Below the pieces are notes generated by a model. That model made no database searches, had not been told where the DNA came from, and was given only the letters and a program-made list of their open reading frames with translations. From a virus (Duplodnaviria; Heunggongvirae; Uroviricota; Caudoviricetes), in IMG/VR virus record IMGVR_UViG_2693429774_000004, positions 1 through 15,490 of that record: a stretch of 15,490 nt of DNA. The stretch is one strand, 5' to 3'. The position numbers were made by a program, and so were the translations under genes. Positions 2,632 to 15,490 of this stretch are shown one piece after another (the stretch's first letter is position 1; the number at the start of each line of letters is the position of its first letter).

Positions 2632-4158
2632 ATGAAAAAAGCCATAGCATATATGCGATTTTCATCACCAGGTCAGATGTCTGGTGACTCATTAAACCGA
2701 CAGAGAAGACTTATTGCTGAATGGTTAAAGGTAAATAGTGATTATTATCTTGATACCATAACATATGAAGATTTAGGATTAAGTGCATTCAAAGGAAAGC
2801 ATGCACAATCAGGAGCTTTTTCGGAATTTTTAGATGCTATAGAGCATGGTTATATATTGCCAGGAACTACATTGTTAGTTGAAAGTCTGGACAGACTTTC
2901 AAGAGAAAAAGTCGGTGAAGCGATTGAACGTCTGAAATTGATTTTGAATCACGGTATTGATGTTATAACTCTTTGCGACAATACAGTCTATAATATTGAC
3001 TCTTTGAATGAGCCATATTCATTAATAAAAGCCATACTTATAGCACAAAGGGCAAATGAAGAAAGCGAGATAAAGTCAAGTCGGGTTAAATTATCATGGA
3101 AGAAAAAACGGCAGGATGCAATGGAATCAGGTACGATTATGACGGCGTCTTGTCCGAGATGGCTCTCCTTAGATGACAAAAGAACGGCTTTTGTTCCAGA
3201 CCCCGACAGGGTGAAAACTATTGAGCTAATTTTTAAACTCAGGATGGAAAGGCGCTCATTGAATGCAATAGCCAAGTATTTAAATGATCATGCTGTAAAG
3301 AATTTCTCAGGAAAAGAAAGTGCATGGGGACCTTCTGTAATTGAAAAATTATTAGCGAATAAAGCTCTGATAGGTATATGCGTACCTTCATATCGTGCAA
3401 GAGGGAAAGGGATAAGTGAAATCGCTGGCTATTATCCCAGAGTTATATCAGATGATTTGTTTTACGCTGTACAGGAAATTCGGTTGGCACCTTTTGGTAT
3501 TAGCAATAGTAGCAAGAATCCTATGCTAATAAATCTACTTCGAACAGTTATGAAGTGTGAGGCTTGTGGTAATACCATGATTGTTCATGCGGTATCTGGA
3601 AGTTTGCATGGCTATTATGTTTGTCCGATGAGAAGATTACATCGATGTGACAGGCCATCAATAAAAAGAGATTTGGTTGATTATAATATCATTAATGAAT
3701 TGCTTTTTAATTGTAGCAAAATTCAACCAGTTGAAAACAAGAAAGATGCTAATGAAACTTTAGAGTTAAAAATTATTGAGCTTCAGATGAAAATTAATAA
3801 TTTAATCGTTGCATTGTCTGTCGCGCCTGAAGTTACCGCTATAGCAGAGAAAATAAGACTATTAGATAAGGAATTACGAAGGGCTTCGGTATCATTGAAA
3901 ACTTTGAAGAGTAAAGGTGTAAATTCATTCAGTGATTTTTATGCTATTGACTTAACCAGTAAAAATGGACGAGAGTTATGCCGTACACTTGCCTATAAAA
4001 CATTCGAAAAAATCATAATTAATACGGATAATAAAACCTGTGATATCTATTTTATGAATGGCATTGTTTTTAAACACTATCCTTTAATGAAAGTAATATC
4101 CGCCCAGCAGGCGATAAGTGCTCTCAAATATATGGTTGATGGTGAGATTTATTTCTAA
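2632..4158 (+). CDS. ybcK: Large serine recombinase (resolvase/invertase-type catalytic domain, recombinase domain, zinc ribbon, C-terminal coiled coil)
   Basis: 508-aa ORF. N-terminus AIAYMRFSSPGQ fits the serine-recombinase active-site motif (Y-x-R-x-S). Cys cluster CEACGNTM...YYVCPMRRLHRCD resembles the zinc ribbon of large serine recombinases. Lys/Glu-rich C-terminal segment. Low-GC coding. Confidence 0.88.
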   Translation: MKKAIAYMRFSSPGQMSGDSLNRQRRLIAEWLKVNSDYYLDTITYEDLGLSAFKGKHAQSGAFSEFLDAIEHGYILPGTTLLVESLDRLSREKVGEAIERLKLILNHGIDVITLCDNTVYNIDSLNEPYSLIKAILIAQRANEESEIKSSRVKLSWKKKRQDAMESGTIMTASCPRWLSLDDKRTAFVPDPDRVKTIELIFKLRMERRSLNAIAKYLNDHAVKNFSGKESAWGPSVIEKLLANKALIGICVPSYRARGKGISEIAGYYPRVISDDLFYAVQEIRLAPFGISNSSKNPMLINLLRTVMKCEACGNTMIVHAVSGSLHGYYVCPMRRLHRCDRPSIKRDLVDYNIINELLFNCSKIQPVENKKDANETLELKIIELQMKINNLIVALSVAPEVTAIAEKIRLLDKELRRASVSLKTLKSKGVNSFSDFYAIDLTSKNGRELCRTLAYKTFEKIIINTDNKTCDIYFMNGIVFKHYPLMKVISAQQAISALKYMVDGEIYF

Positions 4159-8094: not shown

Positions 8095-8262
8095 TTAAAA
8101 ATGGGGCGTTGAAACGCCCCCAAAAATAAAGGGTAATATATAACAGAAGGTTTGTATAGTTAGAAGCAAGGTTGTGCTTCTAAAGGAAGTGGCTTGAGGG
8201 AGCCACTTATATGTTGGGGAGGCAAAGCCTCCCACAACATATCTTTTAGTAATCAAATTAGA
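8095..8262 (-). ncRNA. ipeX: Candidate small RNA from the nmpC 3' region (possibly IpeX-like), ending at a minus-strand intrinsic terminator
   Basis: On the minus strand the 8103-8120 hairpin is followed by ATTTTTAATAAC, a canonical terminator about 140-160 nt past the nmpC stop. I recall an sRNA named IpeX mapping beside nmpC in DLP12, but I cannot confirm its exact coordinates or strand from memory. Confidence 0.3.
8103..8247 (+). promoter_or_regulatory. Cluster of four stem-loops between quuD and nmpC: candidate late-promoter leader/qut region with terminator
   Basis: Stems at 8103-8120 (GGGGCGTT/AACGCCCC), 8162-8181 (AGAAGCA/TGCTTCT), 8187-8208 (AAGTGGCT/AGCCACTT) and 8211-8240 (ATGTTGGGGAGGC/GCCTCCCACAACAT, one bulge). 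The last is followed by ATCTTTTAG on the plus strand. Confidence 0.4.
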
Positions 8263-9340
8263 ACTGGTAAACCATACCTACAGCAACGATATCATCGGTA
8301 GCAACGCCAGATGCTTTCGTGAAATCGCTCTTATCAATCAGGTTGATTTTGTAGTCAACAAAAGTGGACATATTTTTGTTGAAGTAATAGGTTGCACCTA
8401 CATCAACATATTCAACCAGGTCCTGATCACCCCAAACACCCAAGTCTTTTCCTTTAGAATGCAGGTAAGCAACGGATGGACGCAGGCCGAAGTCGAACTG
8501 ATATTGTGCAACAGCTTCGAAGTTTTGTGCTTTGTTGGCAATATGGTTATTACCAAAAACAGTCATGTTCTGGGTTTCAGAATAGGTGGTGGCCAGATAG
8601 ATGTTGTTCGCATCATATTTCAGACCAGCTGCCCATACTTCAGCATTTTGACCAGAAGCATTCAGACCGTTGTTACCGTAGATAACCTGATTATTAGTGC
8701 GATCAGATTTAGCATAGGTTGCACCTACACCGAATCCTTCATACTCATAAGTAGTGGAGAAACCGAAACCATCACCATTAGCTTCAGTTACGTCAGTGCG
8801 GTCATTTTTACCCTGATACTGAGCAGCAAAGTTCAGACCATCAACCAGACCAAAGAAGTCGTTGTTACGATAAGTTGCAACACCAGTGGTGCGACCAGTC
8901 ATGAACACATCTGTTTGAGTCCAAGTGTCACCACCGAATTCTGGCAGGACGTCAGTCCACGCACCGATGTCGTATGCTACACCGTAGTTACGGCCGTAAT
9001 CGATGGAGCCGTAGTCACCGAATTTCAGGCCAGCGAAGGCAAGACGGGTTTTATCTTTGGAGGAACCTTGAGATTCAGCGCGGTTGCCTTTGAATTCATA
9101 TTCCCACTGACCGAAACCAGTCAGTTGATCGTTGATTTGGGTTTCACCTTTGAAGCCAAGACGGGCATAAGTAGTATCACCATCATCTGCATCATTAGAG
9201 GAGAAGTAGTGCTTAGCATTAACTTTCCCGTACAGATCCAGCTTGTTACTGTCTTTATTATAAATTTCAGCTGCCTGAGCAGACATCGCCATCAGTACTG
9301 ATGCAGCTACAGCAGAAATTGCCACTGTTAATTTTTTCAT
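8258..9340 (-). CDS. nmpC: Outer membrane general porin NmpC (OmpD/OmpC family), apparently intact
   Basis: 360-aa ORF with signal peptide [23 protein letters not shown], porin-typical Gly/Tyr/Asp-rich beta-strand composition and the conserved C-terminal motif VGMVYQF. Confidence 0.92.
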
Positions 9341-12180: not shown

Positions 12181-12192
12181 GGGCGGCGACCT
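12181..12192 (+). other. cosN: lambda-type 12-nt cohesive-end sequence
   Basis: GGGCGGCGACCT, preceded by ...CCGACAGGTTACG and followed by CGCGGGTTTTCGCTATTTATGAAAATTTTCCGG, i.e. the junction of lambda right and left ends as I recall them. Confidence 0.85.
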
Positions 12193-12369
12193 CGCGGGTT
12201 TTCGCTATTTATGAAAATTTTCCGGTTTAAGGTGTTTCCGTTCTTCTTCGTCGTAACTTAATGTTTTTATTTAAAATACCCCCTGAAAAGAAAGGAAACG
12301 ACAGGTGCTGAAAACGAGCTTTTGGGCCTCTGTCGTTTCCTTTCTCTGTTTTTGGCCGTGGAATGAACA
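12193..12369 (+). other. cosB region (terminase small-subunit binding sites and IHF site) between cosN and the nohD start
   Basis: Position and near-identity to the first ~180 nt of the lambda left end. Individual R3/R2/R1 sites not mapped. Confidence 0.6.
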
Positions 12370-12511
12370 ATGGAAGTCAACAAAAAGCAGCTGGCTGACA
12401 TTTTCGGTGCGAGTATCCGTACCATTCAGAACTGGCAGGAACAGGGAATGCCCGTTCTGCGAGGCGGTGGCAAGGGTAATGAGGTGCTTTATGACTCTGC
12501 CGCCGTCATAA
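12305..12511 (+). CDS. ybcW: 68-codon ORF overlapping cosB and the 5' end of nohD (YbcW-like); doubtful coding status
   Basis: ORF present in the track. I recall a 68-aa ybcW annotated at this position in K-12, but it lies in a different frame across cosB and nohD and the same DNA in lambda is not considered coding. Confidence 0.15.
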   Translation: MLKTSFWASVVSFLCFWPWNEQWKSTKSSWLTFSVRVSVPFRTGRNRECPFCEAVARVMRCFMTLPPS

Positions 12512-12915
12512 AATGGTATGCCGAAAGGGATGCTGAAATTGAGAACGAAAAGCTGCGCCGGGAAGTTGAAGAACTGCGGCAGGCCAGCGAGACAGATCTC
12601 CAGCCAGGGACTATTGAGTACGAACGCCATCGACTTACGCGTGCGCAGGCCGACGCACAGGAGCTGAAAAATGCCAGAGACTCCGCTGAAGTGGTGGAAA
12701 CCGCATTCTGTACTTTCGTGCTGTCGCGGATCGCAGGTGAAATTGCCAGTATTCTCGACGGGATCCCCCTGTCGGTGCAGCGGCGTTTTCCGGAACTGGA
12801 AAACCGACATGTTGATTTCCTGAAACGGGATATCATCAAAGCCATGAACAAAGCAGCCGCGCTGGATGAACTGATACCGGGGTTGCTGAGTGAATATATC
12901 GAACAGTCAGGTTAA
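12370..12915 (+). CDS. nohD: Terminase small subunit Nu1 homolog (cos-binding), full length
   Basis: 181-aa ORF MEVNKKQLADIFGASIRTIQNWQEQGMPVLRGGGKGNEVLYDSAAVIKWYAERDAEIENEKLRREVEELRQ...GLLSEYIEQSG, essentially lambda Nu1, with a winged-HTH N-terminus. Confidence 0.93.
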   Translation: MEVNKKQLADIFGASIRTIQNWQEQGMPVLRGGGKGNEVLYDSAAVIKWYAERDAEIENEKLRREVEELRQASETDLQPGTIEYERHRLTRAQADAQELKNARDSAEVVETAFCTFVLSRIAGEIASILDGIPLSVQRRFPELENRHVDFLKRDIIKAMNKAAALDELIPGLLSEYIEQSG

Positions 12916-13135
12916 CAGGCTGCGGCATTTTGTCCGCGCCGGGCTTCGCTCACTGTTCAGGCCGGAGCCACAGACCGCCGTTGAATGGGCGGATGCTAAT
13001 TACTATCTCCCGAAAGAATCCGCATACCAGGAAGGGCGCTGGGAAACACTGCCCTTTCAGCGGGCCATCATGAATGCGATGGGCAGCGACTACATCCGTG
13101 AGGTGAATGTGGTGAAGTCTGCCCGTGTCGGTTAA
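12890..13135 (+). pseudogene. N-terminal 81-codon stub of terminase large subunit A
   Basis: [81 protein letters not shown] matches the lambda gpA N-terminus, then stops at 13133-13135 where homology ends. Start overlaps the nohD 3' end as in lambda. Confidence 0.85.
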
Positions 13136-13185
13136 CCGCGCTGACAGACAATACGCAGGGGGCAGCAGGTCTTGAGTTATACGAG

Positions 13186-14088
13186 GTGTATAACAACGGA
13201 TATCCAACAGCGTATGGAAATATCATTCACCTGAAAGGGATGACAGCCGTTGGCGAAGGTGAGTTACTCATCGGCTGGAGTGGTACAAGCGGTGCTCATG
13301 CTCCGGCATTTATTCGTTCACGACGGGATACGACCGACGCAAACTGGTCGCCGTGGGCGCAGCTTTACACCTCGGCTCATCCTCCTGCAGAGTTTTATCC
13401 AGTCGGTGCACCAATCCCGTGGCCATCAGATACCGTTCCGTCTGGTTATGCCCTGATGCAGGGGCAGACTTTTGACAAATCTGCATACCCGAAACTTGCA
13501 GTTGCTTATCCGTCAGGCGTGATCCCTGATATGCGTGGCTGGACGATTAAGGGCAAGCCCGCCAGTGGTCGGGCCGTATTATCTCAGGAACAGGACGGCA
13601 TTAAATCGCACACCCACAGCGCCAGCGCATCCAGTACGGATTTGGGGACGAAAACCACATCGTCGTTTGATTACGGAACCAAATCCACGAATAACACCGG
13701 GGCGCATACCCATAGTATTAGCGGGACCGCAAATAGTGCCGGCGCGCACCAACACAAGAGTTCCGGTGCATTTGGTGGCACGAACACGAGCATTTTCCCT
13801 AATGGTTATACCGCGATTTCAAATCCAAGCGCGGGGATTATGAGCACAACAAGCGGTAGTGGCCAGACTCGTAATGCAGGGAAGACATCATCAGATGGTG
13901 CTCATACCCACTCGCTGTCCGGCACTGCTGCAATCGCAGGCGCACATGCACATACTGTCGGTATTGGTGCTCATACGCACTCCGTTGCGATTGGCTCACA
14001 TGGACACACCATCACCGTTAACGCTGCGGGTAACGCGGAAAACACCGTCAAAAACATCGCATTTAACTATATTGTGAGGCTTGCATAA
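13186..14088 (+). pseudogene. C-terminal fragment of a side tail fibre gene (lambda Stf / T4 gp37-like distal domain)
   Basis: 300-aa ORF ending ...[14 protein letters not shown] like lambda Stf, with seven His-x-His motifs. No N-terminal tail-attachment region. The frame is open from about 13117; the track start at 13186 is GTG. Confidence 0.85.
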
Positions 14089-14669
14089 TGGCATTCAGAA
14101 TGAGTGAACAAGCACGGACCATAAAAATTTATAATCTGCTGGCCGGAACTAATGAATTTATTGGTGAAGGTGACGCATATATTCCGCCTCATACAGGTCT
14201 GCCAGCAAACAGTACCGATATTGCACCACCAGATATTCCGGCAGGCTTCGTGGCTGTTTTCAACAGTGATGAGGCATCGTGGCATCTCGTTGAAGACCAT
14301 CGGGGTAAAACGGTTTATGACGTGGCTTCCGGCGACGCGTTATTTATTTCTGAACTCGGTCCGTTACCGGAAAATGTTACCTGGTTGTCGCCGGGAGGGG
14401 AATATCAGAAGTGGAACGGCACAGCCTGGGTGAAGGATACGGAAGCAGAAAAACTGTTCCGGATCCGGGAGGCAGAAGAAACAAAAAACAGCCTGATGCA
14501 GGTAGCCAGTGAGCATATTGCGCCACTTCAGGATGCTGTAGATCTGGAAATCGCAACGGAGGAAGAAACCTTGTTGCTGGAAGCCTGGAAAAAGTATCGG
14601 GTGTTGCTGAACCGTGTTGATACATTAACTGCACCGGATATTGAATGGCCAGTAGCACCTATAGGGTAA
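14088..14669 (+). CDS. tfaD: Tail fibre assembly protein Tfa
   Basis: 193-aa [57 protein letters not shown]... near-identical to lambda Tfa from memory. ATG overlaps the stf stop (TAATG). Confidence 0.9.
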
Positions 14670-14754
14670 ATTCGTAATGATTACCTAAATACGTTATTCT
14701 TTTGTTAAAAAAGTGATTTTGCTATAGGTAGGGAGTATGTTCTTGGATTAAGAA

Positions 14755-14786
14755 TAAAAAATCGCCATGAAAGAGCTTCATGGCGA
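14755..14786 (-). terminator. Perfect 10-bp stem-loop with adjacent A6/T6 tract, terminator-like in minus orientation
   Basis: TCGCCATGAA (14762-14771) pairs with TTCATGGCGA (14777-14786) around a 5-nt loop. AAAAAA lies immediately upstream on the plus strand, which is a U-tract after the hairpin on the minus strand. Confidence 0.3.
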
Positions 14787-15418
14787 GTACATAAACGTAC
14801 AAAATGTGATGAAAGTAGAGTGGCGTAAGCCACTATATTAAGATATGACAATAGCGAAGAAAAGTAAATAACATTTCATGGACGTTTAATTGTTAATTAT
14901 AAAAACTAGAGTGCCCGATATTGTTTATCTTGCTTTAAAATAATGTACTCAAACCAAATTTTTGAGCTAAAAGCTCAAATAATATAAATGCAATAATAAT
15001 GTTTAATAAGACAATTAGCTTGCTTTGTATTTTCATTTCGGAATACTGTTAAGTAACTTTGATGACCCTAACAATAGATCGGAATTTTCTTAGAGTCAAT
15101 GGTCACTGTTTTTGCTTGCAAAGCAAATGTTTTGGTGGTTATAAGTTGTCTTAATATAGTCACGCATGCAACTTGTTCCATGCGGAGATTAAAGATTGGA
15201 ATATAACGCGAAGATGGAATTAAATTACATTTGCAATAATCAATTTATTATTACTCAATAATTACCGATATTATTATTGTAAATTAATCATTAGAGTGCA
15301 AAAAGAAATGTAACGGCAAAATAAGAGGACGATAGCTGAGAAAAAAGCGTGCTTTCCCAATCTGGGGCAAATCACGTCTGAATGACACCTGAAAACAGGT
15401 GGTAGCCTCAAGAAGGCT

Positions 15419-15490
15419 GGTGATGCTGCCAACTTACTGATTTAGTGTATGATGGTGTTTTTGAGGTGCTCCAGTGGCTTCTGTTTCTAT
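15419..15490 (+). mobile_element. IS1 left end (terminal inverted repeat and start of insA), truncated by the window edge
   Basis: GGTGATGCTGCCAACTTACTGATTTAGTGTATGATGGTGTTTTTGAGGTGCTCCAGTGGCTTCTGTTTCTAT matches the IS1 terminus as I remember it. insA appears to start at the GTG at 15474 (V/M-A-S-V-S-I...). Confidence 0.85.

Follow-up and report, generated by a model that had tools for sequence, protein, structure and literature searches.

How did the start of a terminase large subunit gene come to lie against the distal third of a side tail fibre gene, and does the point at which the two meet reflect selection for a functional unit or the way in which the DNA broke? The junction in question lies in a window (the whole stretch of DNA that was analysed) of 15,490 nucleotides, and a search with 2.5 kb around the junction gave 100% matches to three complete E. 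coli genomes. The RefSeq annotation of a 100% identical genome, NZ_CP148405, reveals that the window corresponds to the right half of a cryptic lambdoid prophage of the DLP12 type, which in that strain is located at att-lambda, between ybhC and ybhB. The annotated genes run in the order O, P, ren, emrE, ybcK, ybcL, ybcM, ybcN, ninE, ybcO, rusA, ylcG, and quuD, followed by an intact porin gene, essD, rrrD, rzpD, iss/bor, ylcI, and nohD, and then, 3' of nohD, by two pseudogenes, a tail fibre assembly gene, IS1, and appY. The assignment to the DLP12 type is based on the emrE...nohD...appY gene order in this annotation and on BLAST matches to K-12 DLP12. The segment that holds cos, nu1, the A stub, stf', and tfa is located directly downstream of the lysis genes in the late-operon orientation, and its cos, nu1, and tfa are all intact (Table 1).

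Table 1. Features around the junction, with their positions in the window, strand, and the basis of each assignment
Feature	Position	Strand	Basis
cosN cohesive-end sequence GGGCGGCGACCT, intact	12181..12192	+	direct read; cosQ-side and cosB flanks lambda-like
nohD, the nu1 terminase small subunit gene, intact, 181 aa	12370..12915	+	Pfam Phage_Nu1; RefSeq nohD
A', remnant of gpA (terminase large subunit), codons 1-81, with a TAA made by the junction	12890..13135	+	translation; lambda homology to nt 955
GTCGGTTA, imperfect 8-bp repeat containing the crossover	13127..13134	+	three-way alignment of window, lambda A, and PhiR42_1 stf
CGGTTAACCG, perfect 10-bp palindrome made by the join, absent from both parents	13129..13138		direct read; pattern scan
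stf', C-terminal 317 codons (Stf 710-1025) plus stop	13135..14088	+	translation; collinear with PhiR42_1 stf from L002 position 2507
tfa, tail fibre assembly chaperone, intact, 193 aa	14088..14669	+	Pfam Caudo_TAP; sequence read
AT-rich DLP12-type sequence 3' of tfa	14670..15418		common to the DLP12 prophage of RM10410; not Qin type
IS1 left end, cut by the window end	15419..15490	+	IS1A transposase annotated just past here in the identical genome

The left flank of the junction is closely related to phage lambda. Positions 12201-13134 align to lambda nt 21-955 with 98.6% identity, the nu1/A overlap included, and the nohD product covers positions 1-164 of 164 of the Pfam Phage_Nu1 profile (E=3.9e-101). 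The lambda A homology ends at 13134, which corresponds to codon 81 plus two bases. An earlier note, made from the sequence alone, had described gpA homology that ends in ...VVKSARVG and is followed at once by a stop at 13133-13135, and this was confirmed by translation and by the lambda alignment. A functional gpA has about 641 amino acids and features an ATPase domain and a C-terminal endonuclease domain. The open frame in the window is not a functional gpA, since it holds the first 81 codons only; its match to the Pfam GpA_ATPase profile is confined to positions 3-39 of 247 and falls below the cut-off. Nucleotide collinearity with lambda A from the start codon, together with the overlap with nu1, identifies it as a gpA remnant, and PGAP annotates it as a pseudogene with a missing C-terminus.

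The right flank is derived from a side tail fibre gene. Stf homology begins at 13133, at codon 709/710 of a 1025-residue Stf, and from there the window follows, in collinear order, stf of phage PhiR42_1 (PV340562) and then an intact tfa. At the DNA level the remnant is 95-97% identical to stf of phage PhiR42_1 and of phage mEp460. Pfam finds a Collar domain (E=9.8e-12) and the fibre repeat, and this content, with the collinear homology, identifies the remnant as the C-terminal, receptor-binding part of Stf. A functional Stf also has an N-terminal tail-attachment domain, a shaft, and a start codon. The remnant is not a functional Stf, because the homology starts only at codon 709/710 and no start codon is supplied; there is no ribosome-binding site at the junction either, and PGAP annotates the gene as a pseudogene with a missing N-terminus. 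The product of tfa matches positions 1-130 of 131 of Caudo_TAP (PF02413, E=3.9e-42), which places it among the Tfa proteins. The tfa frame overlaps the stf stop codon, and a GAGG ribosome-binding site is located 8 nt upstream of its ATG. The earlier description of a C-terminal part of Stf followed by an intact tfa is thus upheld by the PhiR42_1 alignment and the Pfam content. Its statement that the Stf frame opens about 50 bp after the stop is incorrect: the frame is open from 13102, being closed 11 codons upstream of the junction, the Stf homology starts at the junction itself, and 13186 is the first in-frame GTG. Positions 13136-13185 encode Stf residues 710-726 and not a different, continuous tail protein.

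Beyond tfa the window follows the DLP12 type. Homology to Qin stops at 14670, the place that is occupied by pinQ in the Qin type. BLAST aligns 13391-15418 of the window with one of the fetched loci, L007, at 97.4%, and a terminator scan placed a minus-strand terminator-like hairpin at 14762-14786 in the AT-rich sequence. The 72 nt of IS1 at the window end match at 100% a sequence that lies beside an IS1B transposase gene annotated in another fetched locus (L010).

Alignment of the window with lambda A and with stf-tfa set the crossover at the dinucleotide TA at 13133-13134, which is shared by the A and Stf homologies with zero bases intervening. This TA forms the right edge of an 8-bp repeat, which reads GTCGGTTA in lambda A and GTCGGGTA in intact stf, so that the two copies are identical at 7 of 8 positions. 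The TAA stop at 13133-13135 is a product of the join, and the A frame differs from the Stf frame, which excludes an encoded fusion protein. On the lambda coordinate scale approximately 20-21 kb were lost, from A codon 82 through J and lom to the first 709 codons of stf. The earlier reading of the locus as a deletion scar in which A codon 81 is joined to the distal third of stf is therefore supported by both flank alignments, and the head and tail genes of the lambda-like morphogenetic region are indeed absent, with about 20 kb missing. Reading of the junction sequence and a search for Pin-type sites revealed no IS element, att site, or pix site at the junction, and a promoter and terminator scan found neither element there. 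The collinear flanks and the TA overlap within a 7/8 repeat, with no IS end and no Pin-type site at the join, are those of a short-homology illegitimate deletion. Judged from these alignments, the window scar is an illegitimate-recombination deletion at a short imperfect repeat and is ordinary in kind. It is very probable that the scar of about 20 kb was made by one illegitimate event, the stf endpoint of which fell at a deletion hot spot located directly after the motif GGTCGGGTA.

The decay of DLP12 and Qin prophages is well known, and the window scar is one more allele of this decay, both of its stubs being RefSeq pseudogenes already. The closest relative in K-12 is the nohA-stfQ-tfaQ segment of Qin (b1548-b1546), which occurs in approximately 360 of 5,426 complete E. 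coli genomes. This segment has the same stf breakpoint to the nucleotide (..TA/ACCGCGCTGACAG, with the slash marking the breakpoint here and below), carries the same C-terminal 317 codons of Stf and the same tfa at about 97.7% identity, and is joined out of frame, as in the window. Unlike the window, its left end is at nu1 codon ~177 (GAATA-TA), there is no A stub, the C-terminus of nohA is altered, and pinQ lies 3' of tfa where the window has appY-side sequence. The K-12 DLP12 segment nohD-aaaD'-tfaD' shares the backbone of the window (emrE, ybcK...rusA, quuD, essD, rrrD, nohD, appY), and likewise has an intact cos and nu1 followed by a shortened A. Its scar, however, joins A at codon ~103 to tfa at codon ~50 with a TTAT/ATAT microhomology, so that all of stf and part of tfa are lost, and K-12 DLP12 is located at argU, whereas the prophage of the strain identical to the window is at att-lambda.

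The earlier note had proposed a survey of strains for longer or shorter remnants, and many such variants were found. The stf endpoint is kept with other left ends, at U codon 72 in NCCP12480 and in the tape measure gene in 2017.11.01CC. Other remnants join A up to codon 395 to stf codon 698, A codon 350 to another stf family, and A codon 81 to stf codon 661, or are composite (A312-Z30...U72-stf709, A81-L...J...stf, and A56-A390..415-stf709). Six strains with longer remnants (DLI.5a, NCCP12480, RM10410, ETEC4073, 65COLEC, and EC21Z-048) show the same kind of illegitimate junctions at the same loci as the window, and several of them reuse the A81 or stf709 endpoint; unlike the window, they have retained between 312 and 395 codons of A or pieces of Z, U, L, and J. 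Since strains keep differing remnants, the decay of these prophages must have run separately in many lineages.

The exact window junction is present in four of the 5,426 genomes and at two different prophage loci: in Qin in S3, and in a DLP12-type prophage in Z1323CEC0018, Z1323HEC0011, and TUM3755. The same 100 nt of junction are found in these four independent complete genomes and in one IMG/VR contig (L064), and the junction is thus neither a chance feature nor an assembly artefact. Because the identical junction occurs in Qin as well as in the DLP12-type prophage, the window scar may have been imported by homologous recombination, that is, made once elsewhere, for example in Qin, and then copied into the DLP12-type prophage through the homology of nu1 and stf'-tfa. 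These sequences are ~98% identical between the two loci over 2.3 kb, and in the L064 contig the junction is identical while the 3' end of tfa differs, which shows reassortment around the junction. Both endpoints are reused and have 7/8 identity, however, so that the same join could also arise twice independently, and copying is judged to be a real possibility that falls somewhat short of an even chance.

To determine how the stf endpoint is used elsewhere, a 25-mer just right of the junction was used as bait in IMG/VR, metagenomes, and genome representatives. Most of the baited loci have an intact stf upstream (..AAAAGGTCGGGTA/ACCGCG..), and the rest have varied non-stf sequence joined at the same nucleotide. 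Some loci were fetched as apparent variants, most came from unbiased pattern scans, and together they give, for this Stf type (family 1), 143 loci in which stf is intact and 34 in which it is truncated at the site, the latter falling into 20 junction sequence classes. The breakpoint pattern recurs in an allele that has G at +1. A second Stf type with an unrelated C-terminus (family 2, ..NGRV/PSARKVNGK.., intact form ..AATGGTCGGGTA/CCTTCTGCC..) has seven foreign partners joined at the same TA, with 14 intact loci, 8 truncated loci, and 7 junction classes; some of the junction classes could be nested derivatives rather than independent events. In all, approximately 25 different upstream phage genes are joined at the stf endpoint, the position of which varies by 2 nt at most. 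Among the partners, the following were identified: nu1 (two sites), A (three sites), the portal gene B, another portal gene, a prohead protease gene, E (two sites), Z, U, the end of a V-like gene, the tape measure gene, L, I, and the end of lom. The truncated alleles are spread over many right-hand haplotypes, which have identical counterparts among the intact alleles, and the deletion events were therefore independent and recent. The assembly of one locus, L079, is full of homopolymer frameshifts.

The sole sequence that the two Stf families have in common at this place is the 9-mer GGTCGGGTA, which lies on the deleted side directly before the breakpoint and was found elsewhere only once in 2.4 Mb of fetched loci. 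On the partner side, TA is present at the join in 9 of the 11 partners with a known parent against a chance expectation of 1/16, the exceptions being B and U, and G is enriched at position -4. Every identified left partner, of which there are at least 19, lies upstream and in direct orientation, so that only deletions and no inversions are observed, and four of the junction products are perfect palindromes of 8-10 bp. The A end is reused as well: the A81 site GTCGGTTA has at least four right partners, which in other strains include lambda L, sequence lying upstream of K, and stf codon 661, and a site at nu1 codon ~171 is reused with three partners. Taken together, these results place the stf end, and to a lesser degree the A end, on a sharp recurrent breakpoint, and for the stf end, where at least 25 independent deletions of other prophages stop as well, they suggest an unrecognised fragile or enzyme-cut site. 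No description of an stf breakpoint hot spot was found in the literature searched. The window scar itself is of little weight, and the recurrent pattern weighs more: of the prophages sampled with this Stf type, about one in four is truncated at one and the same nucleotide.

This distribution bears directly on the earlier statement that exactly the tip and its chaperone had been retained. The structure is as stated; the idea of purposeful retention is weakened, as the endpoint is a hot spot of approximately 25 deletions that are mostly out of frame. A selective account would hold that the endpoints are random and that their apparent precision comes from selection to keep a functional unit of Stf tip and Tfa. 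In nearly all truncated alleles tfa is intact and the C-terminal Stf frame stays open over 300-317 codons, incomplete prophages are enriched for tail fibre genes (PMC7744054), and chimeras with the Stf C-terminus of the cryptic prophage e14 block T2 adsorption (PMC12529663), all of which would agree with such selection. Selection at the protein level is, however, unable to fix an endpoint within 2 nt, and the majority of the junctions neither keep the frame nor supply a start codon. Endpoints further upstream would keep the unit too, yet only three other stf truncations (L006, L028, and L184) are seen in the 2.1 kb upstream of the site, and in one locus (L168) the site serves as a left endpoint, with a deletion that destroys the tip. 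The endpoint distribution already contradicts random endpoints under selection, which we regard as very improbable. Reuse of the site by ~25 deletions, mostly out of frame, argues instead that the precise stf endpoint reflects how the break forms.

Self-targeting by a type I-E CRISPR-Cas system was considered as a source of fixed right ends and variable left ends, as an AAG PAM lies to the left of the breakpoint at a distance of 6 nt. The nick made by Cas3 falls 7-11 nt into the protospacer, and degradation then proceeds only towards the PAM side. The geometry of family 1, AAAAG followed by GTCGGGTAACC, would fit with the breakpoint at protospacer positions 6-9, and so would the direction and the length range of the deletions. 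A spacer in the tested register is present in no array of the 5,426 genomes, the best array matches being chance matches, and the reuse of the A81 left endpoint would be left unexplained. Additionally, family 2 has AAT and not AAG before GGTCGGGTA and yet has the same hot spot, which essentially refutes the idea; it is the least credible of the explanations considered.

Several candidate determinants of the breakpoint were examined, most of which were rejected. The Pin/Gin/Hin/Cin recombination site is 26 bp long with the core AAACCnnGGTTT. No match resembling this core was found in the stf-tfa-pin region of PhiR42_1 even with one mismatch allowed, and the pix sequence TTCTCCCAAACCAA (PMC12529663) does not match, so a Pin/Gin-type crossover was discarded. 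A weak resemblance to the left arm of a Pin-type site can be seen at the family 1 breakpoint and is absent in family 2. The inverted-repeat search at the breakpoint gave nothing convincing, and folding of the two DNA strands yielded z-scores of -0.7 and -1.1, neither of them significant, so that a hairpin or cruciform is not supported. A BstEII-type site (GGTNACC) or the quasi-palindrome CGGgTAaCCG is missing from the TAG allele and from family 2, both of which have the same hot spot. The right-hand motif TAACCGCG was prompted by a site at lambda Z codon 29; the right side of family 2 differs from it, and the Z codon 29 case is therefore just an 8-nt microhomology. Selection for an in-frame TAA stop or a fusion does not agree with the frames in K-12 and at lambda E. 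A likeness to lambda cosN (AGGTCG...GTAACC), noted by eye, is a weak lead and is given no weight as evidence, since the nick positions do not coincide and family 2 is without it. Gyrase sites stimulated by quinolones are cut before G (PMC6379681), and the gyrase cleavage motif matches only half of the breakpoint site.

The most likely mechanism, as we infer it, is a break followed by resection and joining. A break or nick would arise in stf just after the GGTCGGGTA motif, the upstream side of the break would be resected, and the ends would be sealed at whichever TA or GnTA microhomology could be used first. In the case of the window the partner would be the near-identical motif in A, itself a reused endpoint, so that two copies of the motif would have been joined directly. 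The upstream position and direct orientation of all left partners fit resection and joining and not a recombination that is capable of inversion, and the lack of inversions speaks against a recombinase of the conservative type acting on a palindromic TA core. E. coli end joining normally degrades both ends, and the near-perfect preservation of the right end would therefore need a protection step.

A dedicated sequence-specific enzyme that cuts after GTCGGKTA-like motifs, either a homing-type or other nuclease or an HUH-like enzyme that nicks and joins, would make the window scar a ligation of a cut in A to a cut in stf, and in the other alleles the strong stf site would be paired with weaker GnTA pseudo-sites. 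The endpoint is nucleotide-precise in two Stf families whose only common sequence is the 9-mer, the motif is found at either end of the window scar with 7/8 identity, each of these ends is reused, and the exclusively direct-orientation products are those predicted by strand-specific joining; the frequent TA and the G at -4 in the partners also favour cutting at related sites. The same likeness among the partner motifs is equally expected from plain microhomology, however, and the B and U partners lack the TA. The site is unlike the crossover sites of Pin, Gin, and Hin (compare pix in PMC12529663), the BstEII-type GGTNACC is absent from the G allele and the partner sites, and no candidate enzyme gene was found. 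On balance a dedicated enzyme is considered unlikely, although clearly more credible than either selection or CRISPR self-targeting.

Known systems show parts of the same pattern. Int-promoted lambda deletions with one end fixed at att likewise have one fixed endpoint and varied, weakly site-like partners, and illegitimate recombination at the nicks of rolling-circle origins (M13, pC194) shows the same fixed end and variable partner. The enzyme and the site are known for both, whereas the breakpoint here is a 9-mer inside a tail fibre gene, unlike the att, M13, and pC194 sites. The invertible segments of Mu (G), P1 (C), and e14 (P), which are acted on by Gin, Cin, and Pin, also recombine where the constant part of a fibre gene meets its variable tip, and Qin-type relatives have a pin gene beside tfa. 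The window has no pin gene, and unlike these segments the breakpoint has no Pin-type site and yields deletions only.

A wider proposal is that GGTCGGGTA, at the boundary between the Stf shaft and the exchangeable module, would be the cleavage or nicking site of a candidate enzyme in the phage and prophage pool of E. coli that normally drives the exchange of tip and chaperone between lambdoid phages, and that the many scars in cryptic prophages, that of the window among them, would be its misrepair products. This is a speculative proposal and is judged to be somewhat less likely again than a dedicated enzyme as such. The candidate enzyme could act as a homing-type or competition nuclease or by nicking and joining and, if the proposal is true, it would be a major directed route of prophage decay. 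A specific cut would explain why fibre tips and chaperones are over-represented in cryptic prophages, would supply a mechanism for module exchange at the shaft/tip boundary, and would offer one short motif as a handle to engineer or block host-range swaps. If the sequence is merely fragile, it is nonetheless among the sharpest natural deletion hot spots observed in E. coli and a convenient system in which to study Ku-less end joining.

The earlier note also proposed that the remnant serves as a cassette for host-range exchange with incoming phages, and this is plausible. Lambda gains markers from the tfaQ region of Qin and the stfR region of Rac at approximately 2e-6 per phage, and from the R-cos-nu1-A region of DLP12 about a hundred times more frequently (PMC3945230). 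Over its first 560 nt the stf remnant shows no difference from 20 alleles that are intact in phages or prophages. The cassette idea is reasonable on account of this precedent for marker pick-up and of the identity to intact alleles. The remnant could donate tip and chaperone sequence to phages by homologous recombination, which would be a consequence of its survival and need not be the reason for it.

The 9-mer GGTCGGGTA, which directly precedes the breakpoint at stf codon 709/710 (stf709), is also found in a second Stf tip family (NGRV/PSARKVNGKAL, the slash marking the breakpoint). In this family the 9-mer is again located directly 5' of the breakpoint, and seven different left partners are present (comparison loci L007, L222, L253, L255, L257, L264, and L272). 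The codons of GGTCGGGTA are identical in both Stf contexts, which are otherwise unrelated. The stf709 TA serves as a left endpoint in only one case, locus L168 (9144-9400), where stf is intact as far as GGTCGGGTA and is there joined to mid-tfa, with the tip deleted. The K-12-type junction is also present in a species-representative genome (L079, CP178306.1) with only ~93% identity. Most of the differences are indels in homopolymers, and all of the ORFs are disrupted by them, so the low identity probably reflects errors in this assembly and not true divergence.

Left endpoints are also reused. The A codon 81 site, GTCGGTTA/TTCC (window 13127-13134), is used repeatedly in other strains, and its other right partners are lambda L codon 2, a position upstream of K (lambda nt 14246), and stf codon 661 (L011, L182, and L184). 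A second left endpoint with reuse is found at approximately codon 171 of nu1 (CTGATA/CCGG), the partners of which are stf709 and two J sites. One candidate enzyme considered for the TA-centred joins was YbcK, the large serine recombinase encoded in the window, but no connection to the joins was found.

The features beside the junction and elsewhere in the window are collected in the table. Since cosN, cosB, and nu1 are all intact, a helper lambdoid terminase could still cut the prophage and start packaging at this position. In published crosses with lambda, DLP12 recombines most readily in this cos-nu1 region (PMC3945230).

Features of the window
Feature	Position	Strand	Remarks
ybcK	2632-4158		large serine recombinase of 508 aa; lies within the prophage's emrE-ybcM insertion
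porin gene (nmpC/ompC-like)	8258-9340	minus	360 aa; intact
cosN, cosB, and nu1	12181-12915		all intact, nu1 full-length; adjoin the dead A stub
IS1	15419-15490		in the AT-rich DLP12-type spacer from tfa to appY (spacer 14670-15418)

The Stf remnant is itself a mosaic. Its central stretch (window 13725-13890) is unlike the type found in phage PhiR42_1 and cuts every phage BLAST match into two pieces. A second sharp mosaic boundary is located at the 3' end of tfa, after ..DIEWP, where more than 20 different continuations are found across the loci.

The window is contained within a DLP12-type prophage at 1392480-1416063 of NZ_CP148405.1 (loci L285 and L001). In this window-identical genome the prophage occupies att-lambda, between ybhC and ybhB, whereas DLP12 of K-12 is located at argU. 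At the left end of the prophage a partial integrase gene lies directly against a partial gam gene, and this junction is a further deletion scar. At the other end, beyond appY, the prophage is flanked by IS fragments. The prophage porin gene is uninterrupted in the window, whereas it is interrupted by IS5 in K-12 DLP12. The tfa-appY spacer is the same in strain RM10410, which is collinear with the window as far as 15418.
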